Positions 45,272-60,200 of a stretch of DNA of 64,000 nucleotides are shown piece by piece. The stretch is from positions 246,490 to 310,489 of the forward strand of contig JAIYAT010000020.1 in NCBI GenBank assembly GCA_027488905.1. The letters run 5' to 3'. A program made the translations under genes and the position numbers. Numbering within the stretch: the first letter of the stretch is position 1; the number at the start of each line of letters is the position of its first letter. Source of the stretch: Bacteroidota bacterium (lineage in GTDB: Bacteria > Bacteroidota > Bacteroidia > UKL13-3). The notes beneath the pieces were generated by a model, which was given only the letters and a program-made list of their open reading frames with translations, was not told the DNA's origin and searched no databases.

Positions 45272-47683
45272 ATGATAGATAAAAAGTCCCTTTCTGAAAG
45301 AGATATATGCACCAAGTTTATTACCCCTGCGGTTGAGAAAGCGGGATGGAATAGACTGACGCAGTTATTGGAGGAAGTTTCGTTCACGGATGGAAAAATT
45401 TATGTGAGAGGTAAACTGACTGCAAGAGGAAATAAAAAACGAGCCGATTATATTCTGTATTACAAACCCAATATTCCTATTGCCATCATTGAGGCCAAAG
45501 ACAACAAGCATTCTGTTAGAGCGGGTATTCAACAGGCTTTGGATTATGCTCAAATACTTGATATCCCTTGTGTTTTTAGTAGCAATGGGGATGGCTTTTT
45601 GTTTCACGACCGTACCGCTACAGATGGTAATATTGAAACTGAAATTGGCTTAGATGATTTTCCAAGTCCCGAACAACTTTGGGAGAAATACAAAATTTAC
45701 AAAGGCATCGCAACGCCATCCGCTGAAAAGATTGCTTCACAAGATTATTATTTTGATGGTTCAAACCGAAAACCAAGATACTACCAACAAATTGCAGTAA
45801 ACAGAACTGTGGAAGCCATTGCCAACGGACAAAATCGTATTATTTTGGTAATGGCAACAGGTACTGGAAAAACTTATACTGCTTTTCAAATCATTCACAG
45901 ACTTTGGAAAAGTGGTGCAAAAAAACGCATTCTGTTTTTGGCCGACCGTAACGCATTAATTGACCAGACTCGCAGAGGCGACTTTAAACATTTTAAGGAT
46001 AAAATGACGGTGGTAAAGCACCGACAAATTGATAAGAGCTATGAAATCTATTTGGCATTATACCAAGGCTTATCTGGTACTGATGAGGATGCAAATGTGT
46101 ACAAACAATTTTCACCAGACTTCTTTGACTTGATTGTTATTGACGAGTGCCACCGAGGAAGTGCAAAGGAAGACAGCAGTTGGAGAGAAATTTTATCCTA
46201 TTTCAAAAACGCAACACATATTGGTTTAACTGCTACGCCAAAAGAAACCAAAGAAACAAGCAATACAGAATATTTTGGCGACCCAGTTTATACTTATTCC
46301 TTAAAACAAGGAATTGACGATGGTTTCCTTGCTCCCTATCGCGTAGTTAGAATTGGATTGAATATAGATGCTGAGGGTTGGCGTCCCGACCAAGGTAAAA
46401 CAGATAAAGATGGAAACGAAGTTGAAGATAGGGTTTATAACCGCAAGGACTTTGACCGAAATTTAGTAATAGAAGAACGCACAGAATTGGTTGCAAAAAA
46501 ACTCACTGAGTTCTTAAAAGGCTATGATCGTTTTGCAAAAACCATTGTGTTTTGTGTAGACATTGACCATGCTGAACGCATGCGAACGGCTTTGGCCAAA
46601 CATAATGCTGATTTGGTGGCAGAGAATTACAAGTATGTCATGCAAATTACAGGCGACAATGATGAAGGCAAACGAGAATTAGATAACTTCATCAACCCCG
46701 AAGAAAAATATCCTGTGATTGCCACTACCTCTGAATTAATGACAACAGGTGTGGATGCACAAACCTGTAAAGTAATTGTATTGGATGCCAATATCAATTC
46801 AATGACCAAGTTCAAACAAATCATTGGCAGAGGCACTCGCATCAATGAAGAATATGGTAAGCTTTATTTCACCATTCTTGATTTTAGAAACGCAACCGAT
46901 TTGTTTGCCGACAAAGATTTTGATGGTGACCCAATTCGTGTAAAGCCTGTTTCGCAAGACGAAGATTTATCATTGGTAGTAATTGAAGAAGAAGAAAATT
47001 CAGTAACCGTTTTAGACGAAGCCACAGGTGAGGAAGTGGTATTTGAAAAAGTTAAAATCCGCTATCCAGATGGCTCACCACTTGATGGAAATTGGGTAGC
47101 AAGAGATAAAAAGGGTTATAGAGAAAAAGTGTATGTAAACGGTGTGGATGTATCTGTTTTGGTGAGCCGTGAAATGTATTTCGACCAACACGGTAAACCC
47201 ATCACAAGCAGTTTAAAAGACCATACCAAAGATATTATCAAAGAAAAGTTTGCTTCGCTCGACGACTTTTTAAATAAGTGGAATTCCACCGACCGCAAAG
47301 AAGCCATCATTGCAGAATTGCAAGAACAAGGAGTAATGGTAGAACCCTTGTATGATGCCGTAAATAAAGAAGTGGATTTGTTTGATTTGATTTGTCATGT
47401 GGCTTTTGACCAACCCCCATTAACAAGGAGAGAAAGAGCCAACAACGTAAAGAAGCGAAACTACTTTACCAAATATGGCGAACAGGCCAAAAAAGTATTG
47501 GAAGCCTTATTAGATAAATATGCTGATGAAGGCATTACCAATATTGAAAATATAGAAGTGTTAAGAATTAATCCATTTGATTCTTTTGGATCACCTTTGG
47601 AAATCATCAACGAGTTCGGAAGTAAACAAAATTACTTTGCTGCCATCAAAGAACTGGAGACAGAACTATACAAACAGGCCTAA
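45272..47683 (+). CDS. hsdR: Type I restriction enzyme R subunit (short form, 803 aa)
   Basis: N-terminal PD-(D/E)xK nuclease region (ADYILYY...IAIIEAKD). SF2 helicase motifs (MATGTGKT Walker A; VIDECHR DEAH box; GLTATP motif III; later TTSELMTTGVD/QIIGRGTR motifs V/VI). Confidence 0.85.
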   Translation: MIDKKSLSERDICTKFITPAVEKAGWNRLTQLLEEVSFTDGKIYVRGKLTARGNKKRADYILYYKPNIPIAIIEAKDNKHSVRAGIQQALDYAQILDIPCVFSSNGDGFLFHDRTATDGNIETEIGLDDFPSPEQLWEKYKIYKGIATPSAEKIASQDYYFDGSNRKPRYYQQIAVNRTVEAIANGQNRIILVMATGTGKTYTAFQIIHRLWKSGAKKRILFLADRNALIDQTRRGDFKHFKDKMTVVKHRQIDKSYEIYLALYQGLSGTDEDANVYKQFSPDFFDLIVIDECHRGSAKEDSSWREILSYFKNATHIGLTATPKETKETSNTEYFGDPVYTYSLKQGIDDGFLAPYRVVRIGLNIDAEGWRPDQGKTDKDGNEVEDRVYNRKDFDRNLVIEERTELVAKKLTEFLKGYDRFAKTIVFCVDIDHAERMRTALAKHNADLVAENYKYVMQITGDNDEGKRELDNFINPEEKYPVIATTSELMTTGVDAQTCKVIVLDANINSMTKFKQIIGRGTRINEEYGKLYFTILDFRNATDLFADKDFDGDPIRVKPVSQDEDLSLVVIEEEENSVTVLDEATGEEVVFEKVKIRYPDGSPLDGNWVARDKKGYREKVYVNGVDVSVLVSREMYFDQHGKPITSSLKDHTKDIIKEKFASLDDFLNKWNSTDRKEAIIAELQEQGVMVEPLYDAVNKEVDLFDLICHVAFDQPPLTRRERANNVKKRNYFTKYGEQAKKVLEALLDKYADEGITNIENIEVLRINPFDSFGSPLEIINEFGSKQNYFAAIKELETELYKQA

Positions 47684-47749
47684 ATAAGGTTAATAATCCC
47701 TCAAAATGAAATTTGCAATTATCAAATCTGATTATATATTTGCCATCAA

Positions 47750-47800
47750 CATGCTCACCCCGCTTCCCGTAGAACAGCGCGCTCAGGGTGAGCTTTTTAT
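47750..47800 (+). terminator. Rho-independent terminator between hsdR and the Abi gene
   Basis: gctcaccccgcttcccgtagaacagcgcgctcagggtgagctttttattttt: a stem gctcaccc/gggtgagc followed by a T-run. Confidence 0.65.
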
Positions 47801-47812
47801 TTTTATAGAGGT

Positions 47813-48709
47813 ATGAGTAAAATTAACTACAATAAGCCTCCTCTTTCCTATACAGATCAAATTATCCAGCTAAAACAGCGTGGACTAATTATTAGCAACG
47901 AGCCTAAAGCACTTCACTTACTTGAGAATATCAGTTACTATAGGCTAAGTGGATATTGGTTTCCCCTTCTAGCTGATAAATTTGCTCATCAGTTCAAACC
48001 TAATTCCACTATTGAAACAGCTTTTAATTTATACTGTTTTGACAGAGAATTGCGTCAACTAATGCTTGCCGAAACTGAAAAAATTGAAGTGGCCATCCGA
48101 GCCAAATTGAGTTACGTTTTTTCGCATGCAAACGGCCCTTTTTGGTTTCAGAACCCAACTAATTTCACTAATCCTGGGAAGCATGCTACCTCATTTGCTA
48201 AAATTGAAGAGGAGTTTCAACGAAGTGATGAAGAGTTTATACATGCCTTTAAGGCAAAATACAATAATCCAATACCTCCCAGTTGGATGACATTGGAAAT
48301 AACATCATTTGGCACCTTATCCATTTTGTACAAGAACCTGAGACCTACCCATCAAAAGCGAGAAATTGCGCACTATTTTGGGTTGCCAGATAAAGTTTTT
48401 GAAACCTGGATTCACAGCATCGTTTACCTTCGTAATGTGTGTGCACACCACACCCGTTTGTGGAATAGAGCCATGAGTATTCAACCACAAATCCCAAGAT
48501 CACCGAGAAAACAATGGTTAAATAATGTAAATGTAGCTAATAACAGAACTTATTTTATTTTAAGTATGGTCGCCTATTTATTGCAAACCATAAATCCAAA
48601 CAATCGGTTTACTGATAAATTTAAAGCGCTTTTACACAAATATCCAAACGTAGATACCAGAGCACTAGGCTTCCCAATTGACTGGGAAAATGAACCACTT
48701 TGGAAGTAA
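47813..48709 (+). CDS. Abi_2 (AbiD/AbiF-like) abortive-infection family protein
   Basis: ...LENISYYRLSGYWFP... and ...YLRNVCAHHTRLWN match the conserved Abi_2-family motifs. Inserted between hsdR and hsdM. Confidence 0.7.
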   Translation: MSKINYNKPPLSYTDQIIQLKQRGLIISNEPKALHLLENISYYRLSGYWFPLLADKFAHQFKPNSTIETAFNLYCFDRELRQLMLAETEKIEVAIRAKLSYVFSHANGPFWFQNPTNFTNPGKHATSFAKIEEEFQRSDEEFIHAFKAKYNNPIPPSWMTLEITSFGTLSILYKNLRPTHQKREIAHYFGLPDKVFETWIHSIVYLRNVCAHHTRLWNRAMSIQPQIPRSPRKQWLNNVNVANNRTYFILSMVAYLLQTINPNNRFTDKFKALLHKYPNVDTRALGFPIDWENEPLWK

Positions 48710-48721
48710 CAAACAAATCAT

Positions 48722-50158
48722 ATGAGCAACATATCAGGCATCATAAAAAGCATTCAAAACATCATGTGGCAAGACACTGGCTTAAATGGCGATGCACAAC
48801 GCATTGAGCAATTGGGCTGGATGCTTTTTTTGAAAATATTTTCGGACAAAGACAAAGAATTAGAGTTACTAGACGACAAATACACCTCCCCCATCCCTGA
48901 TAAATTTCATTGGGTAAAAGAAAAAGGAAATTGGGCAGGTGATGATGAAGGAATGACAGGCGATGAATTGTTGGAGTTTGTAGACAGACAATTGTTTCCT
49001 GCCCTGCGCAATTTGGATTTGAGCACAGGGAACCAACGTGCAGTGATCGTACGAGAGGTTTTTGAAGGCAATAACAACTATATGAAAAGCGGCATCAACA
49101 TTCGCAAGGTGTTGAACAAGCTCAACGAAATTGATTTTAACATTGCCAAAGACCGCCATGCTTTTGGCGAATTGTATGAAACCATTTTAAAGGAATTGCA
49201 AAGTGCTGGAAAAAGTGGTGAGTTTTATACGCCACGTGCCATTACGCAGTTCATTACCGAAACCATAAATCCACAATTGGGTGAAAAAGTATTGGACCCT
49301 GCTTGCGGAACGGGCGGCTATTTGACTTGTGCCATTGAGCATTTAAAGAAACAAGCCAAAAATGTGCAAGAACGCAAAAGCATTGAAGACAATATTGCAG
49401 GTTGGGAATACAAACCTTTACCCTATCTGCTGGCAACAACCAATCTCATTTTACACGACATAGAAATACCCAACATCAAATTTGGCGATGCCTTAGACCA
49501 ACCCTTGAGTAACTTTACCGAAAAGCATCGGGTAAATGTAATATTGGCAAATCCACCATTTGGTGGCATTGTAGCCAATAACAACGAAACTAATTTCCCA
49601 CAAACGTATCGTACCAAGGAAAGTGCCGACTTGTTTTTGATCCTAATGATTCATTTACTAAAACAAGATGGACGAGCAGGAATTGTATTGCCCGATGGCA
49701 GTTTAACAGGCGATGGCGTAAAGCAACGCATTCGCCAAAAATTATTGGAAGATTGCAACCTGCATACCATTATCCGTTTGCCTAATTCTGTGTTTCAGCC
49801 TTATGCAATGGTGGCTACCAACTTATTATTTTTTGACAAAGGTTTGCCCACCAAAGACATTTGGTACTATGAGCACCGCATGCCTGAAGGTTACAAATCC
49901 TACAACAAAACAAGACCCATACAAGCCAAAGAGTTTGAACCCATAACCCAATGGTGGAACAAGCGCACCGAAAGCGATATTGCCTGGAAAGTAAATATTA
50001 AAACCATCATCCAAAGAGGCTATGATTTGGATATAAAAAACCCAACCAAACCCGAAGAGGAAAAGGAATACAACAGTGCCGAATTGATGGAAATGCTACA
50101 CACTTCATTTGAGAAAAGTAATTTCTTGTTGAACCAATTAAAACAAGCGGTGAAATGA
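48722..50158 (+). CDS. hsdM: Type I restriction-modification N6-adenine DNA methyltransferase subunit
   Basis: N-terminal HsdM domain (IMWQDTGLNGDAQRIEQLGWMLFLKIF). SAM-binding LDPACGTGG. Catalytic ILANPPFG. Confidence 0.9.
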   Translation: MSNISGIIKSIQNIMWQDTGLNGDAQRIEQLGWMLFLKIFSDKDKELELLDDKYTSPIPDKFHWVKEKGNWAGDDEGMTGDELLEFVDRQLFPALRNLDLSTGNQRAVIVREVFEGNNNYMKSGINIRKVLNKLNEIDFNIAKDRHAFGELYETILKELQSAGKSGEFYTPRAITQFITETINPQLGEKVLDPACGTGGYLTCAIEHLKKQAKNVQERKSIEDNIAGWEYKPLPYLLATTNLILHDIEIPNIKFGDALDQPLSNFTEKHRVNVILANPPFGGIVANNNETNFPQTYRTKESADLFLILMIHLLKQDGRAGIVLPDGSLTGDGVKQRIRQKLLEDCNLHTIIRLPNSVFQPYAMVATNLLFFDKGLPTKDIWYYEHRMPEGYKSYNKTRPIQAKEFEPITQWWNKRTESDIAWKVNIKTIIQRGYDLDIKNPTKPEEEKEYNSAELMEMLHTSFEKSNFLLNQLKQAVK

Positions 50159-51462
50159 GATTAGAATTTATTGAATTGCCTTTTCTCAGTTTAGGAACAT
50201 CAGGCAAGATTAGAACAGGTTCTGGCTTTAATTCTAGTGATTTTACAACTGAGGGAGTTCCCCTTATAAAAATTGGCAATATCAAAAACAACTTAATAGA
50301 TATCAATGATTGCTCATTTATTTCAGAAAACAAGAAGAAAATAAACTTAACCAAAGAAGATGATTTGTTAATTGCAATGCGAGGAGCCACAAGTGGTAAA
50401 CTTGGTATTGTTTCTAGCCAATTTGCTGACTGCTTTTATGTTGGAAGTATTGGTAATCTTGGAAAAATAAATGAAAAATTGATTTATCGTCCATTTATAA
50501 AATATATTGAACAACAATTATATGATATATTAAAGACCGAAGCAAAAGGAACTGCTACTCCAATGGTTTCAATTGGAATGTTAGAAAAATTCAAATTAAT
50601 TATTCCCAAAACGAAGGAACAACAAGAATATTTATTTGAACTTCTTGAAAGCAGAAAAAGACAAGTTGGCAAACTCTCCACCGAACTCACCCACCAACTC
50701 ACCCTCGTAAAAAAGCTCCGACAGCAATTATTGCAAGATGCAGTGCAAGGCCGTTTCGACTTCGCTCAGGGACCAGAGGAAGACGAACCAGCAAGTGAAT
50801 TGCTAAAAAAGATAAAAGCCGCCCTTCGACAAGCTCAGGGTACGAAAAAAATTAAAGAACTACCACCCATCAAACCCGAAGAAATTCCATTTGAAATACC
50901 TGAAAATTGGGTATGGTGTAGGTTGGGGGAGATAATCACACTAATATCTGGTCAAGACCTAACTCCTTCTGAGTACTCTGACAAAGACAATTTCGGTCTA
51001 CCTTATGTCACAGGTGCAAGTAATTTAGATAAGGGTAATGTAATTTTAAATAGATGGACGAATAATCCAAAATCAATTGCAATTGAAAGTGATTTATTAT
51101 TGACATGTAAAGGTTCAGGTGTTGGGAAAATGGCGATATTAAAAGAGAAGAAGGTGCATATTGCCCGACAAATAATGGCTCTACGAAGTAGCTTCATACC
51201 AAATGAATTTTTAAAAACCTTTTTGGAACTACAGGTTGAAAACTTCAGAGGGAAAGCTAAAAGCTTAATTCCTGGTATTGATAGAGATATTGTATTGACT
51301 TTAACATTTCCGCTTCCTCCATTAGCCGAACAACACCGCATCGTTCAAAAATTAGATGAATTGATGCAGTATTGCAATGAGATGGAAGCAAGCATCAAAC
51401 AAAGCCAAGCGCAAAATGAGAAGTTATTGCAACAGGTTTTGAGGGAGGCGTTGAGGAAATAA
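50155..51462 (+). CDS. hsdS: Type I restriction-modification specificity subunit
   Basis: 4-bp overlap with hsdM. Two target-recognition domains separated by conserved helical spacers (…LVKKLRQQLLQDAVQG… and C-terminal …LAEQHRIVQKLDELM…QVLREALRK). Confidence 0.85.
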   Translation: MRLEFIELPFLSLGTSGKIRTGSGFNSSDFTTEGVPLIKIGNIKNNLIDINDCSFISENKKKINLTKEDDLLIAMRGATSGKLGIVSSQFADCFYVGSIGNLGKINEKLIYRPFIKYIEQQLYDILKTEAKGTATPMVSIGMLEKFKLIIPKTKEQQEYLFELLESRKRQVGKLSTELTHQLTLVKKLRQQLLQDAVQGRFDFAQGPEEDEPASELLKKIKAALRQAQGTKKIKELPPIKPEEIPFEIPENWVWCRLGEIITLISGQDLTPSEYSDKDNFGLPYVTGASNLDKGNVILNRWTNNPKSIAIESDLLLTCKGSGVGKMAILKEKKVHIARQIMALRSSFIPNEFLKTFLELQVENFRGKAKSLIPGIDRDIVLTLTFPLPPLAEQHRIVQKLDELMQYCNEMEASIKQSQAQNEKLLQQVLREALRK

Positions 51463-51486: not shown

Positions 51487-52092
51487 ATGCCAATATCAGT
51501 TCAAAAATTAGAAGACACCTTTCAATTAAAATATTTAAAAAGTATTAAATGGGGGAGCACATTTGTTGAAAATAAAAATGGTGTCTATATTATATCTTCG
51601 AGTAAAGACAAAGATTTCTTACCTAAGCATGATGTTGAGATTGTTATCAATGATAAACAGATTGATTTATGGTTAGCTAATGCACCAAACATACTTCTAA
51701 ATGAAAAGACACCTTCCAAAACAGATTTAATAAATCAGCTAAAGAATTTTTGGTTACCTGATGAAACAATACTTTATATAGGAAAAGCTGAAAAGCAAAC
51801 ATTATCAGAAAGAATAGGTCAGTTCTTCAATCATAAATTTGGCAAAAAAAGCCCTCATAAAGGTGGTTATTGGTTAAAACTTTTAAAAAATATAAATGAC
51901 CTTAACATTCATCTATATGAAACTAAGGAATCCCACATTATTGAAGAAGAAATCTTAAAAAAGTTTATAGAACAAGTCTCGGAACCAACAAAATTAAAAT
52001 TAATTGATAAGAACTTATATTTACCATTTGCAAATTTGCAATTACGCTCTGGAGTAATTAAATCACATGGACTTAAATATCATTACCAATGA
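51487..52092 (+). CDS. Hypothetical protein (possible divergent GIY-YIG-like nuclease)
   Basis: 201 aa, 25 bp after hsdS. Carries GVYIIS ... ILYIGKAEKQTLSERIGQFFNH, reminiscent of GIY ... YIG-x-NLxxRlxxH, but the GIY-YIG spacing is much longer than canonical, so this is weak. Confidence 0.3.
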   Translation: MPISVQKLEDTFQLKYLKSIKWGSTFVENKNGVYIISSSKDKDFLPKHDVEIVINDKQIDLWLANAPNILLNEKTPSKTDLINQLKNFWLPDETILYIGKAEKQTLSERIGQFFNHKFGKKSPHKGGYWLKLLKNINDLNIHLYETKESHIIEEEILKKFIEQVSEPTKLKLIDKNLYLPFANLQLRSGVIKSHGLKYHYQ

Positions 52093-52181
52093 AATGTATA
52101 AAATGTAAAATAAAGTGAAACAGAAATTAATAGGAATTGCCTGAGTTTACAAAAGTGGAGTTGACAAAATAAAAATAGCCT

Positions 52182-53279
52182 ATGAATAATAAACAAGCAA
52201 ACATATGTTTTTTATTGGGAGCCGGAGCTAGCTACCAGGCCTTGCCAGTTGTAAATGAGATTCCTAGAGAACTAGAAAAGATGATGGAATTTATTGTGAT
52301 TTTTGAGTTAAACAAATCTGCTCTAACCTATGATCCAATAAGAGACCAGTTAAATAATTTTTATTCAAAGTTAGAAGAAATAAAAAAGCACAGTTCTATA
52401 GATACATTAGCAAGGAAGTATTGGCTAAAAAGAGAAACATGTGAACATGGTACAAGCGAATATGTTTATTGGAATAAAGAATATGAATACATCAAAAGGA
52501 TTATAAGTTGTTTATTAACCTACCGTCGCTTAACTATAACTACATTATCTGATAATTTTTCAAATGAAATTACAACATTTGATAACAAGCAAAGGATGGC
52601 CTTTAAGCTTGATCCAAGATATGATAGTTTATTGGCATCTATACTAACCCCTAAGTTGCGCTTGCCAGAAAACATTAGCATTATATCTTGGAATTATGAT
52701 TTACAATTAGAACAGGCCTTTTCCTTTTATGAAGGCCAATCCGATTTAATTGAAGTTGGAAAGAAATTAAACATAGGTTACGAAACCCATGAGGAAAGTT
52801 CAATTATTAAATTAAATGGAACTGCTTGGTTTAATCCAGCAGGTTCAATACAGGCGTTTTATGAATACAACACAGAATCACATAACGTATTTTGGAATGC
52901 ATTAAAAGATTCTCACGATCCTAACATAAAAACAGGGATTAAGTTTTCTTGGGAACAGGACGAAATAATTTCACATTATAGAGAACTTGCAGCAAAAAAA
53001 ATAACTGAGGCAGACTTTGTTATTGTAATTGGGTATTCTTTTCCAATTTTTAATAGAGAAACAGATATTCAAATATTTTCAAAATTACCATCAAGTGCTA
53101 AATTAATCATACAAGGTCCTGAAGAACAAGGAAACAGAATTGTGAGTCAAATGGACAGTATTAAGAAAGGTTTGAGTAAAAAAACGAGTGTCGTTTCCAA
53201 CCTTGACCAATTTTACTTACCTAACGAATATTGGCAACCAAATAACTTGAGTTCAGCTAAAATCTATTCAGTTTTTTAA
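52182..53279 (+). CDS. SIR2-like (SIR2_2 / PF13289-type) domain protein, candidate NADase defence effector
   Basis: N-terminal ICFLLGAGASYQA (xLGAGAS NAD-binding). IISWNYDLQLEQAF (NYD motif). C-terminal DFVIVIGYSFPIFN (IGYS motif). At the position of the usual KLHGS catalytic His the sequence reads KLNGT. Confidence 0.6.
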   Translation: MNNKQANICFLLGAGASYQALPVVNEIPRELEKMMEFIVIFELNKSALTYDPIRDQLNNFYSKLEEIKKHSSIDTLARKYWLKRETCEHGTSEYVYWNKEYEYIKRIISCLLTYRRLTITTLSDNFSNEITTFDNKQRMAFKLDPRYDSLLASILTPKLRLPENISIISWNYDLQLEQAFSFYEGQSDLIEVGKKLNIGYETHEESSIIKLNGTAWFNPAGSIQAFYEYNTESHNVFWNALKDSHDPNIKTGIKFSWEQDEIISHYRELAAKKITEADFVIVIGYSFPIFNRETDIQIFSKLPSSAKLIIQGPEEQGNRIVSQMDSIKKGLSKKTSVVSNLDQFYLPNEYWQPNNLSSAKIYSVF

Positions 53280-53395
53280 GATTCAATTTAAGTTAAATTA
53301 ATAGAATTTATATATTCTAAGGAAATACAAGAAACAATTTCATTGATAGTAGTTAATTTAGCGAAAAATATTAGAAATGGAAATAGATTTATAAA

Positions 53396-53740
53396 GATAT
53401 TGGGGGCAGAGGGTCGAAATGTTACGTTTTGCAAAATTTTACCACGTCTAGGAAATACGCTAGCTGGGAAAGTCAATACTATTTTCCAAATTTTCCTGTA
53501 AAGGAAACAATGAGGAAAGTGTTATCAACAGATTAATAACTGTTGAAGCCTTGAAGTTGTGTTTGCGGATGTATTTTCTGAGCATATATAATGTGTTTAT
53601 GGATTTAAGTACAAAGATAACAATTTCTATACCTGAATTGAGTAGCGTTGCCTCCCTTATAAAAGGGTTAAAGCTTCGACAGAGCATGTACATTTCAAAC
53701 CTGCTACATACTATTTTACTAGTATCTGCCCCCTTTTTTT
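53396..53740 (+). ncRNA. Candidate structured ncRNA (retron msr/msd-like or DRT-associated) between the SIR2 and RT genes
   Basis: A ~470-bp non-coding gap. The GC-rich 9-nt inverted repeat GGGGGCAGA (53402-53410) / TCTGCCCCC (53725-53733) brackets ~315 nt and ends 18 nt before the RT start codon, like retron a1/a2 repeats. Internal hairpins include ttttcctgtaaaggaaa and cccttataaaaggg. The small ORFs 53288..53742 look spurious. Confidence 0.3.
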
Positions 53741-53751
53741 AACTTGATAAA

Positions 53752-55275
53752 ATGGAATTAGAAAAGTGGTTTAAAACAAAAAAGTATCCTCATATAGGTT
53801 TACCAATAACAATCAAAGATTATTATTGGGTAAAAGAATATGTTGAAAATTTTGATAAAGTTCGATGCCATAGTTTTCTTCCATTAATACATAAAATTAT
53901 TTTACAAAGAAGATTCAGAGCAGACAATTCTTTACCAGATAGAAACCCAAGTGGAAAGAGGAAAAGATTTATTGACAAGCCAAAAGTTCGAGATATTTTC
54001 TTCGCTTCACATTTAGATTCTTTAGTATTTTCAAAGTACAACGAAATATTGGCAACTGCATATGAAAGTTATATTGAAAATAAGAATTTCAATGAATCTG
54101 TAGTTGCATACCGAAAAATTTCAATTTCAAAGGGTTCTGAAAATAATAAATGCAACATTGATTTTGCAAAAACTACTTTTGAATTTATTCAAAAGAACAA
54201 TACAAAAAATCTTACTGCTATTGTTTCAGACGTTACTGATTTTTTCCCAAGTCTGAATCATAAAATCTTAAAAAAACAATGGACAAGTGTTTTAAACGAA
54301 ACTACTTTACCCAAAGACCATTATAATATATTTAAGGCTATAACTAATATCAAATACATTGAAGGCGACCAGTTATTTGAAAGTTATGGCAAAACTATGA
54401 TTGTTGAAAATGGTGTTCCAAACTCTTCAACTAAAACTACTTTTAAAAGGAAGGAAATAAAAAGTAGTAAACATTTTAAAGAAAAAAATTCCGTTGCTTA
54501 TTGTGAAAAGGATGAATTCCTAAAGAACAATTTAAATTTAATTAAATCAAAAAACAACATAGTTGGAATACCTCAAGGAAGTCCAATCAGTGCAACATTG
54601 GCAAATATCTATATGTTGGAGTTTGATCAAGAAATATTTGATATTGTTTCTTCAATTGGTGGATTTTACCAAAGATATAGTGATGATTTAATTATTATTT
54701 GTGAGCAACAATTTGAAGATGATATTATTAAACTAATCAGAGATAAAATTGATAACCTTGTTGATTTGAAAATAGAACCAAAAAAGACTAAGATCTTTCG
54801 TTTTGAGGAAGTAAAAGGTAAATTTATTGGATTTGAAATTGATGAAAAAACTAAAGCACCAAATCATAATAAAACACTGGCTTATTTAGGATTCTCATTT
54901 GACGGACAAAGGGTTTTGATAAAAACTTCTGGTTTTTCAAAGTTCTATAGAGCAATGAAAAGCTCGTTTAAAAAATCAACTTCTTTAGCAATACATAGTA
55001 AAAATCCCGACAGAAGTTTATTCAAGTCAAGGCTATACAAGCGATTTACCCATAGAGGAGCAAAACGAAAACTTATTTATAGACCATCAAAGGCAGACAA
55101 AAAAGTTTATGAAAAAACGAAAGAGTATTATTGGGGAAATTATCTTAGCTATATAAACAAAGCAAATGAATCAATGAAATCAATAAACGGTGACAATATT
55201 ATCAAAAGGCAAAGCAGAAAGTTTTGGAAGAAATTTAATGACTTAATGAAATTTCATGAATCAAGACTTAAATAA
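53752..55275 (+). CDS. Reverse transcriptase (defence-associated / retron-like RT)
   Basis: RT motif 1-2 RKRFIDKPKVRDIFFASHLDSLV. Motif 3 AIVSDVTDFFPSLNH. Motif 4 GIPQGSPISATLANIYMLEFD. Motif 5 YQRYSDDLIIIC (YxDD). Motifs 6/7 LKIEPKKTKIFRF. About 90 aa insertion between motifs 3 and 4. C-terminal ~140 aa extension. Confidence 0.85.
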   Translation: MELEKWFKTKKYPHIGLPITIKDYYWVKEYVENFDKVRCHSFLPLIHKIILQRRFRADNSLPDRNPSGKRKRFIDKPKVRDIFFASHLDSLVFSKYNEILATAYESYIENKNFNESVVAYRKISISKGSENNKCNIDFAKTTFEFIQKNNTKNLTAIVSDVTDFFPSLNHKILKKQWTSVLNETTLPKDHYNIFKAITNIKYIEGDQLFESYGKTMIVENGVPNSSTKTTFKRKEIKSSKHFKEKNSVAYCEKDEFLKNNLNLIKSKNNIVGIPQGSPISATLANIYMLEFDQEIFDIVSSIGGFYQRYSDDLIIICEQQFEDDIIKLIRDKIDNLVDLKIEPKKTKIFRFEEVKGKFIGFEIDEKTKAPNHNKTLAYLGFSFDGQRVLIKTSGFSKFYRAMKSSFKKSTSLAIHSKNPDRSLFKSRLYKRFTHRGAKRKLIYRPSKADKKVYEKTKEYYWGNYLSYINKANESMKSINGDNIIKRQSRKFWKKFNDLMKFHESRLK

Positions 55276-55468
55276 AGTGCCAATGCCAAAGCCATACATT
55301 TGCAAACCACAAAAGCCAGCCTTAATGCCAAAGCAACAAGGTAACGTACTCCTTCCCAACCGCAATACAGGATAAATTGAAGGCGAGTCTTTAATAAAAC
55401 CTGAAAGTATTGTAGTTGAATTAAAAAAAATAATATTTAAATTCATTACTTGCAATTTTTTATTTCTT

Positions 55469-56116
55469 TTGATTTTAAATCCTCATTATAATAAAGCAAT
55501 GACAAACAGGTCAGAAACCCTATGGGATAAGTCAAATATCTCCTTACTAAATTACCAAAAATTCATCAACAAAAAAGCAGATAAGTACCAACTTACAATT
55601 ATAGATTTGTTTTACATTTCTAACTTTAAAGGTGGGAATTCTACCATCAATGAAAGTGAAGAATTGATAAATAAGAAATTATTAAAATATAGTGAGCAAA
55701 TGAGGGAAATAGATAGTGATTTTGGTTCAACGCACCTTAAAGAACTTTCTAATGAATCACTGAATTCATTATGCAGGCAGGCAAAAGATATTCTGAAGAA
55801 TGGAGATGAAAATGATTTTGCCATAGATGGCTTTAAATCTTCCTTTATCGCTACTTTATTGCATGTGTATTTCCCAAATTTACTGCCAATACTAGATAGA
55901 AGGCTTTTGATAAACCTTGGTTTGGTAGAAGGAAGTGACCTAAACAATGCAAGACAAGTAAAAAATATTGGTGAATTTTACGAAAGGCTGATTAGGAAAT
56001 TTTACGATATCCAAGTTCAATCAGATAAATCAATTAGAGAAATTGATAGAGAATTTTTTATTATACAATTGCCAGATTGGGCAACAAAACCTAACAACTC
56101 AAAAAATGATGAATGA
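55469..56116 (+). CDS. Hypothetical protein downstream of the RT
   Basis: 215 aa, very AT-rich ORF with no recognisable motifs. Possible accessory component of the RT locus. Confidence 0.35.
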   Translation: MILNPHYNKAMTNRSETLWDKSNISLLNYQKFINKKADKYQLTIIDLFYISNFKGGNSTINESEELINKKLLKYSEQMREIDSDFGSTHLKELSNESLNSLCRQAKDILKNGDENDFAIDGFKSSFIATLLHVYFPNLLPILDRRLLINLGLVEGSDLNNARQVKNIGEFYERLIRKFYDIQVQSDKSIREIDREFFIIQLPDWATKPNNSKNDE

Positions 56117-56399
56117 TTACAGGAAGTTTTTATTAGAAGCTATCAAAGGACTTAAAGAGTCGCAGGAACTAATTTTTTCCAATGCCATTAACGTGGCAAT
56201 GAGTAGCGAGATGAAAGAATACGATGAACTTTTTGAATTGGGCGATAAATATGTATTTGACATCAAACAATTTGAAGATTCAAAAGATGCCAATGTTCAA
56301 CATTTAGTTACTTTGGTTAAATCTTTAAATTCGACATGTGATTCAATTATTAATATTAATGCGATCACAGATGAGGAACTTGAATCGATTGAAGAATAA
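56105..56399 (+). CDS. Small hypothetical acidic protein
   Basis: The likely start is MMNDYRKFLLEAIKG, overlapping the upstream stop by 11 nt (translational coupling). Internal start of ORF 56043..56399. Confidence 0.3.
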
Positions 56400-56420
56400 T
56401 TTTAATTGAAAACCTTAAAT

Positions 56421-56712
56421 AATGCCCCAGCGGGGCAACCTGTTTGTAGAACCGAAATAATCACAATTTAATTAGCTCCGTAGGAGCGACCTGTTAATAA
56501 TTACCAACAAACAGAACGCTCCTATAGAGCTGTAAAAGCAATAATTTATAATATGCCCCATCGGGGCTAATTGTTTGTAGAACCGAATCAATCACAATTT
56601 AATTAGCTCCATAGGAGCGGCCTGTTAATAATCCCCAATAAACAGAACGCTCCTATGGAGCTTTGTTTAAATACAAATCCTTTCCTACAAACAGGATGCT
56701 CCTATGGAGCTT
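56421..56712. repeat. Two tandem ~113-bp hairpin-rich repeat units (56421-56532 and 56552-56665) plus a partial third (56681-56712)
   Basis: The units are about 85% identical. Each contains the GC hairpins gcccc(a/t)(g/t)cggggc and (a/c)gctcc(g/a)taggagc(g) / cgctcctat(a/g)gagc, and the inverted pair ctgtttgtag...caaacag. Confidence 0.85.
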
Positions 56713-57257: not shown

Positions 57258-60200
57258 CTATTTCACCTCATACACCACAAACTTAATGCGCTCTTGGCTG
57301 CCTTCTTTTGTGGTAAGGGTTAGCATATAGTTACCTGCTTTTAGGTGGCCTAGCTCGAAGTTTTGGCTTTGGTTCAACCCGAAATACTTATTGCCTTCCC
57401 AAGCTAACCTACCCGCAATATCATAAACTGCCAATTTACAATCTCCAAGTTCATTTAGTGCCTTCACATAAAAGCTTCCGTCATTTGGGTTAGGATACAA
57501 TTGTAATCCTTGTTGCGCAAGGGCTTGGTTCAAGCCAACCGGATTAGGATTACAAATTGAATCGTCTACTACTTTTACCACCAAACTAAATGAATCGCGG
57601 CAACCCGCATCCGAAACACTGGTTAAGGTTACTTTGTAATTACCCACCTGATTATACTTTTTACCATAAATGGAAGTGTTCAAAACATCTGTGTTTCCAT
57701 CTCCAAAATCCCAAGTGGTGCCATTGATAAATCCTGAACCTATGAGGTAAGAAGCATTTACAAAATTATAGTTTTGAGTAAGCAAACATTCTACGGTATC
57801 TAAGGTTACAAAGCGCGAAACTGGTTTTGGTTTACCTGTATTATTTACTTGTAAAAACAAGGTATCAGAAATACTGCTGCAACCTTTTGCATCAATTGCG
57901 GCCAATACTACCGGGAAATTACCCGTAAAGGCATAGGCATGAAATACACTCGAATTTTTAACCAAAGGGGTTGAATACCCATCCCCAAAATCCCATAAAT
58001 ACTCAACGGCATTCGAACTTAAGGCATTAAATCTATATCCAGTATTACAAGGTGCACCCGTTTGTAAGGTAAAGGTAATGGCAGCACCCGGACCAGATTG
58101 GTCAATCACATTAATGTTTTTGCTAATCAACCTGCGACATCCATTGCTTAAGGCAACTTCTAACACAACTGGGAATACTCCGCCATTCTTATAAGTATGA
58201 CTAACATCGGTTGCAATGGAATCCTTACCATCTCCAAAAGTCCAAAAGTAGGAAGCGTTTAAGGTCGACTCGAAACTCAAGTTGGGTTCAAACTGAACTG
58301 TTTTAACACATGGCAATTGTGTGGCAACAAAATCTCCATTAACATCAGAGATGATAAAATTGGAAGAGAAGGTATCTGAACACAAGTTTTCAACTGCAAC
58401 TACTTTTAAGGTATGTTTTCCTTCACTTAAGCCATTTAAAACAAATGAGGTTCCTAACACTTGTGGGGCATTATTGTCTAAAATAAAATAAGTGTCTGTC
58501 ATGCCTGTACTTAAATTTACAAGCTGCCTGCTGTTTGAGCAAGTATCTGTAATGGCTAAACTAAAATCTGCTTTAGGACCATCAAAACCATACAAGGTAT
58601 CTAAAGAAGATAAAGAAGAACACAAGCCTTTTTTGGTTACCAATAACTGAACATACCCCGTATCTGTTTTGTCAAAGGCTACTCTTTGAACCCTCGTGCT
58701 GGAGTCTGTCCAATATTTTCTGTCTCCTAACCATAAGTAGGTGTAATCAGCGCCATTAACTAAAGGTGTGAGTGTAAATACATTTTGGCAATTGTTGGCT
58801 TGAACCAAGAAAGATGAATTGGGAGAATTAACAATTTCAATATTCTCTTGATACGTAAAAGTATCATTGATGGTAAGGCTAACTGCATAAACACCATCTG
58901 CTGCATACGTGTGTGAAGGAGAAGCTAAATTTGAAGTATCCCCATCTCCAAAGCGCCATTTGTAGGAAGTGGCTAGTATGGATGAATCTAAAAATTGAAC
59001 TGTTCTGTTGTTACAATTAAAACCCGTTACGTTAAAATTTGCTACCGGAATAGGCAATACTTCTATATTGGCAATGGCAGTATCCATGCAACCTGTAGAA
59101 CCTACCACGGCCAACATAACTTGGTATTTCCCAGGATTTGCAAACCTCCTATTAAAGACAAAAGAGTTTACCGAATCAATGGTACCATCCCCAAACAACC
59201 AACGATTAGAAACTACCCAACCAATGCCCAAAGAAGAACTGTTATTTAAGAAGTTAAAAGAATGGTCCACAAAATTTTGAATAGGGTCATTTGGCAAGAA
59301 AGAAGCAATTGGACCATAACTGCCAAATGGTAAGTTGATAGTTCTGGAAACCGTGCTGATACAACCATTTTTATTAGCAATTAAAATCACCGCTAAATCT
59401 CCTGTATCAGAAAATGTTTTAACAGGGCTCAAACGATTGTCGGATGTACCATCAGGGAAATTCCAAGTAAAGCGCATGGCGGTATCTGCGGCGCTTAAAT
59501 TGCTAAACTTAATTCTATTGCTGCAAGAATTTGGTGCAATGCCATAGGTAAAATCTATTGGCAATTGGGTTGAACCAAGTCCGGCAACAATAGGCTTCTT
59601 AATACTAACCGCACAACCACTTTCTGAGGTAGTGGTTAGAATTACGGTATCCACTCCAGGATTGATAAAATTAAACACTGGATTGGTAGCATTTGAACCT
59701 CCTTTTATGGGCGAACCAAACTGCCAAGCATAACTCATTCTAGCCAAAACATTGGTAGTGGAGAGGTTTTGAAAACTCACTAATTGATTGCAATTACTTG
59801 CTATAAATTCAAAATTTGGGGTAGGTATAGAAATATTAATAACATCTGCAACGGTATCTGCGCAATTGCCATTGTACACCGCCATTCTAATTAAATGGTA
59901 ACCAAAAGAAAGGTTATTAAGTGCAGCACTAGCACCTATTGAAACATAAGGCGCACCATCTAAACTATACGTATAAGATAACAAGCCAGGACTACTTAAG
60001 TTATTTATCACCCTGTTAGTAGAGCAATAGGTTTGCCCCACAGGAGGAACAACCTCAAAAGCTGCTGTGGCAGAAGGCACAAAAACAGCCGCATTAAAGG
60101 TTAAGGGAGTTGCATTGATTGGGCATCTTCCATTAGAGGCAACTTGAAGGGTAACGGTTTTTAATCCAGCACTACTATAACCCCTGCTGGGCACCCTGAG

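Follow-up and report, generated by a model that had tools for sequence, protein, structure and literature searches.

A probable DRT2 antiviral retroelement of a Bacteroidota lineage, with a probably independent SIR2-like gene beside it, behind a type I restriction-modification operon

In a window of 64,000 nucleotides from a Bacteroidota bacterium (the whole stretch of DNA analyzed here), positions 53403-55275 very probably hold, in complete form, a DRT2 antiviral retroelement (UG2, class 2 UG/Abi) of a Bacteroidota lineage, to which the adjacent SIR2-like gene is an independent neighbor. The locus is a lineage-adapted member of the known DRT2 system and no new architecture of SIR2 plus reverse transcriptase (RT). 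Family membership, the structured and conserved RNA, the geometry of repeats, frame, promoter, start and stop, and the absent SIR2-RT linkage were computed here; cDNA concatenation, phage triggering and Neo toxicity would hold at this locus by analogy with the literature.

The three elements considered are collinear on the plus strand, as a first, sequence-only reading of this DNA had described: a SIR2-like ORF of 365 aa (52182-53279), a gap of 472 nt (53280-53751), and an RT ORF of 507 aa (53752-55275). That reading was also right in placing them in the AT-richest part of the window, the GC content being 0.29-0.30 at 52-56 kb versus 0.34-0.43 elsewhere, and in a defense island after a type I restriction-modification (R-M) and Abi cluster. 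This cluster is a plus-strand operon (45272-51462) that comprises hsdR (45272-47683), an embedded AbiD (47813-48709), hsdM (48722-50158) and hsdS (50155-51462), all on the plus strand and named from Pfam and PADLOC matches and from the Pfam annotation of 100%-identical contigs. Sequence identical to the locus was recovered from several metagenomes. Next comes a plus-strand ORF of 201 aa (51487-52092) with weak GIY-YIG similarity (Pfam E=0.01, below the cut-off), for which PADLOC and NCBIfam searches and tblastn against 78 RT loci and 83 SIR2-like loci gave no matches. It is a neighbor whose presence is not conserved alongside DRT2 or the SIR2-like family.

The active site of the RT, a YSDD box already recognized in the sequence-only reading (Y309-S310-D311-D312), is invariant in 18 homologues, and in Pfam the protein matches RVT_1 only (E=3.7e-14). 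Within PADLOC, the Drt2 models PDLC03757 (E=1.8e-138) and PDLC02173 (E=5.5e-91) are followed by RT_UG17 as the next-best class (1e-24). Moreover, a PDB search returns the solved Klebsiella structure 9c0i, "Antiviral reverse transcriptase Drt2", with E=1.6e-49 over residues 5-444. The NCBIfam Drt2 model gives 339 bits, under its equivalog cut-off of 390 bits, and in comparison with the Klebsiella Drt2 the protein shows one insertion and a C-terminal extension of ~60 aa. By sequence, the protein encoded at 53752-55275 is a reverse transcriptase of DRT2 (UG2), which is the described UG/DRT class that the sequence-only reading had allowed for; of its "retron/DRT-like" module, the DRT part is retained and the retron part is dropped. 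There is a negligible chance that this is the RT of a different retroelement (retron, group II intron, DGR or other DRT class), the gap then being msr/msd, intron RNA or a template repeat. Generic RT motifs do match retron, group II and CRISPR-associated RT models weakly (E=1e-11 to 1e-18), but the Drt2 models outscore all of these by more than 100 orders of magnitude, the retron St85 model reaches 60 bits against a cut-off of 235, and no intron or retron RNA was found in the gap by Rfam. A group II intron or DGR, named earlier as a refuting outcome, is not supported either: the group II RT model gives 70 bits against a cut-off of 300 bits, and the only direct repeat near the locus, an intergenic tandem hairpin repeat at 56415-56662, is not a TR/VR pair because the differences between its copies are not adenine-specific.

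The gap itself had been called a non-coding stretch of ~470 bp. It is indeed structured, folding with z=-3.9 versus shuffles, although it is not ORF-free, since stop-free stretches of 276 nt run on both strands, and these prove to be of significance. Conservation, alignment and RNAalifold delimit within it a DRT2 ncRNA of ~330 nt (~53403-53732, plus strand), 67-89% identical at the nucleotide level to the stretch that precedes the RT in 38 other loci or genomes, and with no matching family in Rfam. In the alignment of 39 sequences, 96.2% of the cells of the RNAalifold structure are paired and 18 pairs carry compensatory changes, versus 36-50% of cells paired in slid controls; the plus strand is the folded strand, because G-U pairs are conserved. 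The RNA is closed by an outer stem (GGGGCAG at 53403-53409 with CTGCCCC at 53726-53732) and a second long-range stem (53412-53430 with 53681-53701), and a T-run follows, the RT start codon lying 19 nt beyond 53732. Just 5' of the template, a hairpin (53442-53467, helices 3 and 4) is 97-100% paired, with a pair (110:119) that alternates between A-U and G-C in 19 of the 39 sequences; it can be likened, by position only, to the "5' handle" of Klebsiella DRT2 (PMC12039810). Besides the GTAGC and GCTAC segments, the 3' scaffold (53633-53732) contains a hairpin at 53646-53678 and the 3' arm of each closing stem, and it is the best-conserved part of the ncRNA, with helices 9 and 10 supported in the same alignment; identity averages 79% outside the template and 71% within it. 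The two invariant segments, whose columns never vary, could form a putative pseudoknot.

The predicted template, equivalent to one neo repeat unit, spans 53476-53628 on the plus strand (153 nt, 51 codons). It is bracketed by two direct repeats that would be the analogue of ACA-1 and ACA-2: ATAC-1 (53476-53479) belongs to the template, and ATAC-2 (53629-53632) follows immediately on its 3' side. Neither repeat varies in any of the 39 sequences (39/39). The distance between them is 147, 150, 153, 156 or 159 nt, a multiple of 3 in every one of the 39, and 13 more distant loci obey the same rule with units of 141, 144 or 150 nt, giving 52 sequences in all and seven length classes (141-159 nt); nearly all other ATAC occurrences, taken as an internal control, fail it. 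Also, one frame of the reverse-complement concatemer is free of stops in 39/39 sequences, as it is across all 52, whereas in shuffles a given frame is stop-free in 1.8%. The resulting neo ORF (53476-53628, minus strand) is antisense to the ncRNA, in agreement with the neo mRNA of published DRT2 (PMC11100668), and becomes endless only once concatenated head-to-tail. Its unit at this locus reads MLRKYIRKHNFKASTVINLLITLSSLFPLQENLENSIEIVIFVLKSINTLY and is hydrophobic (GRAVY +0.41; L or I at 16 of 51 residues). Codon-position variability in neo revealed no significant protein-level selection (p=0.2).

At the predicted repeat junction of the concatemer (…GGAAAATAGTAT / AGAAATTGTTATC…), two promoter halves are brought together. 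The first, a -7 box TATCTTTG (53612-53619, minus strand) lying within the repeat at 9 nt from the junction, fits the Bacteroidota sigma-A consensus TAnnTTTG at position -12..-5 (PMC9723704; PMC2483708). It is found at the equal position in 34/39 homologues, the other five being without a perfect box, and is the single TAnnTTTG on the minus strand of 53200-53800; none occurs on the plus strand of 52000-53800. The second, a -33 element TTTG (53487-53490, minus strand), precedes the junction by 15 nt in 38/39 sequences. In chromosomal order this TTTG is misplaced, standing ~125 nt beyond the -7 box and not ahead of it, whereas after concatenation it is 20 nt upstream, with its G at -33. The pattern TTTG-N19-21-TAnnTTTG occurs three times on both strands of the window (128 kb), with 2.98 expected by chance, and is absent from the linear gap. 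Only at the repeat junction do the halves take the correct spacing, in a geometry that fits the published sigma-A boxes. The strict composite promoter is absent from the clade at 47-50% identity. An in-frame ATG (53583-53585, minus strand) occupies unit position 43 in 36/39 sequences and is displaced by a few nt but kept in frame in L026, L030 and L033, so that it is present in 39/39. The leader from the predicted transcription start would measure ~22 nt, the median 5' UTR in a flavobacterium being 24 nt (PMC9723704). Finally, a TAG (53460-53462, minus strand) 13 nt past the template boundary closes the neo frame after 41 codons in the unrearranged chromosome; TAA or TAG stands at this exact position in 37/39 sequences and survives the A-U/G-C covariation of the 5' hairpin (CTA versus TTA).

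Because the published hallmarks of neo synthesis are present, this DRT2 carries its own effector, and the proposal of an anti-phage DRT module made of RT and structured ncRNA is well supported, as an assignment from sequence, by the leading Drt2 match, the 18 compensatory pairs and these hallmarks. By analogy with the Klebsiella system, the RT would bind the ncRNA and copy the 153-nt template from its 3' end to ATAC-1, where the cDNA 3' end (GTAT) would re-pair with ATAC-2 and copying would restart, as rolling-circle reverse transcription. Phage-triggered second-strand synthesis would then yield repeat junctions that join TTTG and TATCTTTG over a 20-nt spacer into a promoter for the host's own Bacteroidota sigma-A, and transcription would give an mRNA with an ATG and stop-free repeats of 51 codons. 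The hydrophobic, repetitive Neo product would halt growth, as abortive infection. In its chromosomal form, the frame is promoter-poor and closed after 41 codons.

Several observations weigh against the DRT2 reading: the sub-cut-off NCBIfam score, the insertion and extension of the RT, ATAC in place of ACA, the absence of significant selection on Neo, the imperfect or missing promoter in some homologues, and one distant contig in which a SIR2-like gene, a gap and DRT2 stand in the same order. Also on this side, a scan of 51842-54173 found no plus-strand promoter for the ncRNA, which must therefore be expressed by read-through or from a non-canonical start. The 1.5 kb upstream of the ncRNA lack a canonical promoter, the place directly after hsdS that relatives keep has been lost, ATAC-1 reads ATACT and not ATACC, and ~7-10 nt are inserted near the ncRNA 3' end. 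These features would suit a DRT2 copy that has decayed or fallen silent, its expression lost behind inserted genes. However, this is highly improbable, for the RT ORF, YSDD, all helices, both ATAC repeats, the stop-free frame, the -33 and -7 boxes, the ATG and the closing stop are intact, and the identical copies in metagenomes also speak against it.

As in the Klebsiella DRT2, whose neo mechanism is published (PMC11100668; Wilkinson et al. 2024, PMC12039810), a same-family RT-only protein lies downstream of a structured ncRNA on one strand, the template sits between a 5' hairpin and a 3' scaffold with a short direct repeat at its flanks, the unit length is divisible by 3, and a stop-free ORF runs antisense to the ncRNA. 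Moreover, in both systems the genome carries the promoter halves in permuted order and only a repeat junction joins them, an in-frame start codon comes next, and within the ncRNA conservation is lowest in the template. The differences are a longer RT (507 versus 425 aa, here under the NCBIfam equivalog cut-off), a repeat of ATAC(C) instead of ACA, a unit of 141-159 nt (153 at this locus) versus 111-129 nt, and a reconstituted sigma-A promoter of Bacteroidota type (-33 TTTG and -7 TAnnTTTG) versus sigma-70 -35/-10 boxes. Also, unlike published DRT2, neo lacks a Shine-Dalgarno sequence, a pair of long-range 5'-3' helices closes off the ncRNA, and the element, known here from its sequence, is often embedded in type I R-M operons. 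The arrangement resembles the single-gene UG2 of Mestre et al. (bioRxiv 10.1101/2021.12.02.470933), with its upstream group-specific ncRNA; the accessory genes listed there for UG2 variants are YodC and YodC-WYL, with no SIR2 partner, and none is supported here.

The 365-aa protein had been placed in the SIR2_2 family. Its motifs GAGAS (13-17), NYD (171-173) and IGYSF (283-287) are invariant across 39 family members. However, it does not match Pfam SIR2_2, and its family profile has no match among PDB sequences, so that the SIR2 assignment rests on weak PADLOC matches (best 5.8e-8) and on the fold. The AF2 model (pLDDT 89.8) has only SIR2 proteins as its best Foldseek PDB matches, the SIR2 of SIR2-HerA first (8uae_F, E=4e-7), then CobB and sirtuins; by its predicted structure the protein has a SIR2 fold. 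Like the effectors ThsA of Thoeris, DSR1/2, SIR2-HerA and SIR2-pAgo, it combines a SIR2 Rossmann fold with a GAGAS loop and an N-x-D motif. Unlike them, it has neither a partner gene (ThsB/TIR, HerA, pAgo) nor an extra sensor domain, it is barely detected by sequence models, and it carries Asn, in a KLNGT motif common to its whole family, at the place where motif spacing leads one to expect the conserved catalytic His of sirtuins. Its family is widespread and stand-alone, and occurs in varied defense contexts, often behind methyltransferase genes.

An arrangement of three parts with SIR2 as effector was the central proposal of the sequence-only reading, and the co-occurrence that it put forward as a check mostly fails. 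A SIR2-like homologue occurs within 7 kb of none of the 78 related RT loci; the three closest SIR2-like homologues (72%, 47% and 44% identity) follow type I R-M genes and have no RT, and an RT is found in only 1 of ~40 further SIR2-like loci with enough downstream sequence. This one, L084/L085, is a distant metagenomic contig that runs from type III res/mod through a SIR2-like gene at 31% identity and a gap of 495 nt to a Drt2 RT at 30% identity (PADLOC 7.4e-129), and the nearest relatives of its SIR2-like gene with downstream sequence (L083, L130) have no RT. At the locus itself, the relic of an hsdS 3' end (its final 10 codons plus the stop, RKILEMEIDL*; 53362-53394, plus strand), with stop codons ahead, separates the SIR2-like gene from the ncRNA and shows that the juxtaposition is secondary. 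This relic is homologous to the C-termini (NKILENEIDK*) of genuine hsdS genes in L001, L002 and L007, which stop ~10 nt short of the ncRNA, and is unlike the end of the window's own hsdS (LREALRK*). The SIR2-like protein as effector or obligatory partner of the RT and ncRNA, in a three-part NAD+-depleting system that answers an infection signal given by the RT product, is therefore very unlikely. Collinearity on one strand, the SIR2 fold and the second, highly diverged case in L084/L085 speak for it, as does the lack of any canonical promoter or terminator found between the two genes, which are for this reason probably co-transcribed. On the other hand, DRT2 needs no protein effector because its ncRNA encodes one, with each neo hallmark intact here, and the family-wide Asn is also adverse. 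Since both genes independently favor the 3' ends of R-M operons, occasional adjacency is expected, and L084/L085 fits this preference. From these sequence comparisons, the SIR2-like gene would be an independent neighbor, neither RT effector nor part of DRT2.

A functional tie to R-M can also be considered. In PrrC-EcoprrI, the classic functional case of a defense gene embedded in a type I R-M operon, dependence on R-M was shown; for DRT2 and the SIR2-like gene, which like AbiD ride on hsd operons, it is only a hypothesis. DRT2 (perhaps with the SIR2-like gene and AbiD) would then be a second-line module of the operon, driven by the operon promoter, with the ncRNA as operon 3' end and failed or inhibited restriction as trigger, as for PrrC. 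This coupling is compatible with the core DRT2 mechanism. In its favor, 26 RT loci have hsdM upstream on the same strand, Methylase_S (Pfam) is found in 16/74 immediate upstream neighbors and N6_Mtase in 20/70 next neighbors, hsdS ends ~10 nt before the ncRNA in the window's subclade, hsdS and hsdR flank DRT2 in the 47-50% identity clade, and the sole full Bacteroidota promoter upstream of the ncRNA (47712-47742) lies within the R-M operon stretch. Nonetheless, it is unlikely: ~60% of RT loci have no R-M genes adjacent, the Klebsiella DRT2 functions alone in E. coli, and defense-gene clustering around R-M operons, a general property of defense islands, needs no functional link. Mestre et al. 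(10.1101/2021.12.02.470933) used operonization with type I R-M as a sign of defense association. Under the preferred reading of an autonomous DRT2, the SIR2-like gene, the 201-aa ORF and AbiD would be independent passengers on one type I R-M operon, the genomic setting in which DRT2 and the SIR2-like gene each recur.

The RT encoded at 53752-55275 on the + strand (507 aa, YSDD box, Pfam RVT_1) matches the PADLOC Drt2 model with E=1.8e-138 and a second Drt2 model with 5.5e-91, the next-best RT class being found at 1e-24 and the retron, group II, and Cas-associated RT models at 1e-11 to 1e-18. Its best match in the PDB is the Klebsiella "Antiviral reverse transcriptase Drt2" (9c0i and others; E=1.6e-49, residues 5-444), with group II and retron RTs behind the Drt2 entries at 1e-6. 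Against the NCBIfam equivalog NF041746 "Drt2", it scores 339.1 bits, under the curated cut-off of 390 bits, and it is because of this score that the homologues are publicly named only "reverse transcriptase domain-containing protein." The Drt2 scores together with the value below the equivalog cut-off therefore point to a divergent member: as placed by profile and PDB scores, the window RT belongs to the wider DRT2/UG2 family, outside the narrow Klebsiella-type equivalog. The family is large, with 1113 matches at E≤1e-10, the named ones being mostly from Bacteroidota. Pfam gives RVT_1 alone, with no extra effector domain in the window RT, and the two segments that the Klebsiella enzyme lacks, an insertion and a C-terminal extension, have no family match in Pfam, PDB, or NCBIfam. 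The sequence-only reading had taken an RT with a YSDD catalytic box beside an ncRNA for a defense RT; this was right, and the PADLOC and PDB matches give the class as DRT2/UG2.

Other RT classes were considered and rejected. The retron RT models reach just E=1e-11 to 1e-16, and an ncRNA does lie upstream of the RT, but with the template geometry of DRT2 and no conserved effector gene. For a group II intron, the RT model gives 70 bits against a cut-off of 300 bits, and no Rfam match was obtained. A diversity-generating retroelement (DGR) would call for a TR/VR pair, and the sole nearby repeat, a tandem hairpin-rich intergenic element downstream of a 118-aa ORF (56415-56531 and 56546-56662; two copies, 87% identical, 131-nt spacing), differs between copies in a way that is not adenine-specific and is therefore no such pair. 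Thus, neither a group II intron nor a DGR, the two placements that had been named as evidence against a defense module, is supported.

In the DRT2 systems described so far, an RT and an upstream ncRNA operate without a protein effector. A template segment within the ncRNA is reverse-transcribed again and again by the RT, with re-priming at the flanking ACA repeats; a double-stranded concatemeric cDNA forms upon phage infection, and the repeat junction builds a promoter. The neo gene is a stop-free antisense ORF with a unit divisible by 3, whose product arrests growth (PMC11100668; PMC12039810). Tang et al. pointed out that Neo is hard to annotate when DRT2 clades are divergent, and that different mechanisms could be at work there.

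The ORFs, their collinearity on the + strand, and the 472-nt gap between the SIR2-like gene and the RT were confirmed as first described. A comparison of 78 loci with RT relatives (38-85% identity), taken from species-representative genomes, reveals that ~53365-53751 within the gap retains 67-89% nucleotide identity in 38 of them, matching or exceeding protein conservation, the first 85 nt 3' of the SIR2-like stop codon being without conservation among those loci. An alignment of 39 ncRNA sequences folds into 10 helices on the + strand, including an outer closing stem (53403-53409 with 53726-53732), a long-range stem of 16 pairs (53412-53430 with 53681-53701), and hairpins directly 5' of the template and at the 3' side. 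In this structure, 96.2% of cells are paired and compensatory changes occur in 18 pairs, with a covariation score of 0.225; slid-partner controls give 36-50% paired and 0.04-0.09, and the observed values were reached in 0 of 500 shuffles. The conservation of G-U pairs indicates that the + strand is the folded RNA. A permissive Rfam search of 51-57.3 kb detected nothing in the gap and only chance miRNA-like matches on the downstream repeat, which are explained by the tandem hairpin element at 56415-56662. Hence, the 38 loci, the pairing, and the compensatory changes substantiate the structured ncRNA suspected between the SIR2-like gene and the RT and, by structure and position, it is the DRT2 ncRNA, being conserved, immediately upstream of the RT, and on the same strand. 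Separately, six Logan contigs 100% identical to the window all stop at 53699, with variable left ends, and this position falls in the ultra-conserved 3' scaffold of the ncRNA. These ends likely correspond to an assembly-graph branch from a co-resident DRT2 locus with which at least 31 nt of scaffold are shared; alternatively, they may mark a polymorphism in the population. The exact locus occurs in the sequencing runs SRR35819077, SRR30952543/575/583/584/588/593, and SRR16126839.

The comparative data reveal the neo signature in this RNA. The ATAC(C) pair is invariant in 39/39 sequences, lying in the window at 53476-53479 and 53629-53632 with a spacing of 153 nt; over the whole set the spacing is 147, 150, 153, 156, or 159 nt, every time a multiple of 3. 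When the reverse complement of the unit is concatenated, the same frame is stop-free in all 39, and the other two frames carry 3-32 stops, except in two loci (L026 and L029), each with a second open frame. Moreover, a motif-anchored search added 13 distant loci, whose RTs have 40-50% identity; their units measure 141, 144, or 150 nt, and each is a multiple of 3 without stops, which brings the set to 52 sequences in 7 length classes. As an internal comparison, other ATAC occurrences nearby almost never yield an open frame, and shuffling of the window unit leaves a given frame open in 1.8% of cases. The sense-strand frame is open in the window and broken in 15 of 39 homologues, which identifies the antisense as the conserved strand, as published. 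Also as in Klebsiella DRT2, conservation is lower in the template than elsewhere in the RNA (mean identity 71% versus 79%), and short direct repeats surround it that would allow re-priming, although the repeat is ATAC here and ACA-1/ACA-2 in Klebsiella. The window Neo unit has a length of 51 residues and is hydrophobic, and third positions of the neo frame are not significantly more variable by codon-position entropy (p=0.2), so that maintenance of the frame is claimed and selection on amino acids is not.

This signature is recognizable by comparison alone, since a single-sequence scan for a repeat, a multiple of 3, and a stop-free frame is non-discriminating, returning dozens of candidates in the gaps of both the window and L084, a metagenomic locus with a similar gene order. 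In the clade with 47-50% RT identity, a column-pair search found nothing because of alignment gaps, and the motif-anchored search then succeeded. The members of this clade (L036, L040-L044, L046, L047, L049, and L063; RT at ~7001-8480) have neo units of 141-150 nt and lack the strict TTTG-N19-21-TAnnTTTG at the junction, so the promoter there may differ.

A promoter of the host phylum is reconstituted at the junction of the units. In the neo-sense concatemer, TTTG lies 15 nt ahead of the junction in 38/39 sequences and TAnnTTTG begins 9 nt past it in 34/39, the spacer to TTTG being 20 nt. Bacteroidota sigma-A recognizes a -7 box TAnnTTTG at -12 to -5 and a -33 element TTTG (PMC9723704; PMC2483708), and when these positions are applied to the window, the G of TTTG lands exactly at -33. 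On the chromosome, the two halves are ~125 nt apart in reversed order, and the window contains 3 copies of the composite motif, against 2.98 expected by chance, none of them in the linear gap. The junction promoter is of the host-phylum -33/-7 type instead of sigma-70. An in-frame ATG (53583-53585) occupies unit position 43 in 36 of the 39 sequences, being in frame and shifted by a few nucleotides in the other 3, and the predicted neo leader is ~22 nt, the median leader in a flavobacterium being 24 nt (PMC9723704). In 37/39 sequences an in-frame TAA/TAG is located exactly 13 nt outside the template boundary, within the 5' hairpin, where it is retained despite A-U/G-C covariation. Because of this closing stop, the chromosomal copy can specify ~41 residues at most, and only concatenation makes the frame endless. 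The junction, in which 5'-ATTTGGAAAATAGTAT is followed by AGAAATTGTTATCTTTG-3', is absent from the chromosome; a search of IMG/VR contigs and of the 169 fetched loci gave no match, which fits a product that the genome does not encode. By analogy with the Klebsiella work, the RT would concatenate cDNA by rolling-circle reverse transcription, phage would trigger the double-stranded concatemer at this locus, and the Neo product would be toxic or growth-arresting.

The SIR2-like ORF (52182-53279, + strand) encodes a single-domain protein of 365 aa that is barely detected by sequence models (Pfam, PADLOC, and NCBIfam). A PDB sequence search with the family profile gave no SIR2 match, so a fold comparison was needed. 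The AF2 model (pLDDT 89.8) has only SIR2 proteins as top PDB matches in Foldseek, the best being the SIR2 of SIR2-HerA (E=4e-7; modest TM scores of ~0.4-0.58 across the matches), and GAGAS, NYD, and IGYSF are invariant in 39 homologues. According to the model, the protein adopts the Rossmann-type fold of SIR2, including the GxGxS loop and the N-x-D motif. A KLNGT motif is also invariant in the family, at what we take to be the position expected for the "HG" catalytic His of sirtuins and SIR2_2 proteins; from motif spacing, Asn apparently stands in place of this His. Thoeris, DSR, SIR2-HerA, and pAgo-SIR2 were rejected because ThsB, HerA, pAgo, or a DSR C-terminal domain is absent, and the ORFs neighboring the gene have no PADLOC match. 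The stand-alone SIR2-fold family extends to at least 545 metagenomic stretches, with invariant GAGAS, D..RY, SWNYDxQxE, KLNGT, and IGYSFPxFN, its members often lying after DNA methyltransferase genes; over the wider family the neighbors are heterogeneous, with a modest excess of DNA methyltransferases. It may represent an uncharacterized single-gene defense family with altered chemistry.

A SIR2 effector in an unnamed three-part architecture, as first proposed, did not hold up: the RT is of the known DRT2 family, and tblastn of the SIR2-like protein against the 78 RT loci with 7-kb flanks gave no match, so that co-occurrence with this RT clade is 0/78. Pfam scans of RT neighbors, upstream and downstream, show no recurrent SIR2, and the UG2 accessory genes reported by Mestre et al. 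are YodC-type, with no SIR2 among them (10.1101/2021.12.02.470933). The nearest SIR2-like homologues (72%, 47%, and 44% identity) each close a type I R-M operon on its 3' side, and none has an RT in its vicinity. Among 80 metagenomic SIR2-like loci, an RT is downstream only in L084 and L085, one very distant contig assembled twice, in the order type III res, mod, SIR2-like gene (31% identity), 495-nt gap, and Drt2 RT (30% identity to the window RT; PADLOC Drt2 7.4e-129). There, the module spans 6992-10177 with the gene order and orientation of the window, and its gap has long antisense open stretches in which neo limits are not delimitable without homologues. None of the nearest relatives of the L084 SIR2-like gene with downstream sequence has an RT after it. 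In our reading, the adjacency in the window and in L084 reflects two passengers, both favoring R-M operon ends, that sometimes meet, and the only real link between the SIR2-like gene and DRT2 would be transcriptional and not mechanistic.

Three further ORFs, of 201, 215, and 118 aa, were rejected as parts of the system because they have no homologue in related loci and no family matches. The last two overlap downstream of the RT (55469-56116 and 56043-56399, + strand), have no Pfam, PADLOC, or NCBIfam match, lack homologues in all related loci, and follow a -7 box at 55295; they may represent another orphan gene pair of the island. Also, the five closest RT relatives possess a conserved ORF of 96-112 aa that overlaps the RT stop codon by 17 nt (L001 8505-8795, L002 8505-8807, L004 8499-8837, L007 8101-8406, and L038 8505-8795), with no Pfam match and no counterpart in the window. 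Beyond these, 57258-63983 on the - strand encodes a 2241-aa PKD-repeat protein whose C-terminus resembles a T9SS sorting domain; this protein, the relatives, and the type of promoter jointly assign the window to Bacteroidota.

Regarding the setting, a defense island following a type I R-M/Abi cluster in the most AT-rich part of the window was correctly recognized: 52-56 kb has the lowest GC (0.29-0.30), and hsdR, AbiD (Abi_2 3.4e-58; PADLOC AbiD 4.6e-81), hsdM, and hsdS lie upstream of the SIR2-like region. This embedding recurs among the relatives, with hsdM preceding the RT in the same orientation in 26/78 loci, Methylase_S as the immediate upstream neighbor of DRT2 in 16/74, and N6_Mtase as the next in 20/70. 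In the 47-50% clade, DRT2 sits in the type I R-M operon between hsdM-hsdS and hsdR, and in the closest RT relatives (L001, L002, and L007), hsdS ends ~10 nt before the ncRNA. The window preserves a relic of such an hsdS at 53362-53394 (+ strand), where RKILEMEIDL and a stop codon correspond to NKILENEIDK and a stop codon in the relatives; stop codons precede it, and it is unlike the terminus of the window's own hsdS. The ancestral order was therefore hsdS-ncRNA-RT, the SIR2-like/DRT2 junction being secondary.

A sigma-70 promoter and terminator scan was discarded, its counts being equal to those of shuffles and its model irrelevant to Bacteroidota. The only complete + strand Bacteroidota promoter upstream of the ncRNA is TTTG-N19-TATATTTG at 47712-47742, just before AbiD, which likely drives a long AbiD-hsdM-hsdS-201aa-SIR2-like-ncRNA-RT transcript. 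Since no + strand -7 box occurs between 51842 and 54173, the ncRNA is probably processed from the operon read-through transcript. Perturbed NAD/nucleotide pools have been suggested by Wilkinson et al. as a possible DRT2 trigger (PMC12039810). A speculative and rather improbable extension is that DRT2, possibly with the SIR2-like protein and AbiD, forms a second layer of the R-M system, in which the ncRNA is the 3' end of the hsd transcript, neo synthesis is permitted once restriction has been overcome or inhibited, and the SIR2-like protein could add to this via NAD/nucleotide pools. If true, both independent arrangements of R-M, SIR2-like gene, and DRT2 would be explained.

Taken at the level of sequence, the locus belongs to the known DRT2 family, of which it is a lineage-adapted member; it is not a new SIR2 and RT system and should not be presented as such. 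Its distinctive features are the ATAC repeats, the units of 141-159 nt, a junction promoter of host type, the closing stop, and the embedding in an R-M operon. The published mechanism would thereby be extended to a clade not resolved before, as far as checked, although a 2026 preprint, [quoted passage not shown] which mentions DRT2 and terms beginning with Bacteroid, may already describe the ncRNA and neo of this clade. For annotation, the rules offered are the ATAC…ATACCTGA distance modulo 3, the stop-free antisense frame, and the closing stop 13 nt outside the template. Moreover, R-M operon ends appear as a common landing site for unrelated defense genes, yielding misleading "architectures," which calls for caution in guilt-by-association discovery from adjacency at these ends. 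Finally, in this Bacteroidota clade, whose RTs have 38-85% identity, the neo logic remains intact, with the junction promoter in the host -33/-7 form. This finding supports the view that gene synthesis by rolling-circle reverse transcription is general, and it predicts that such systems would be silent for neo in E. coli, their testing needing a Bacteroidota host.
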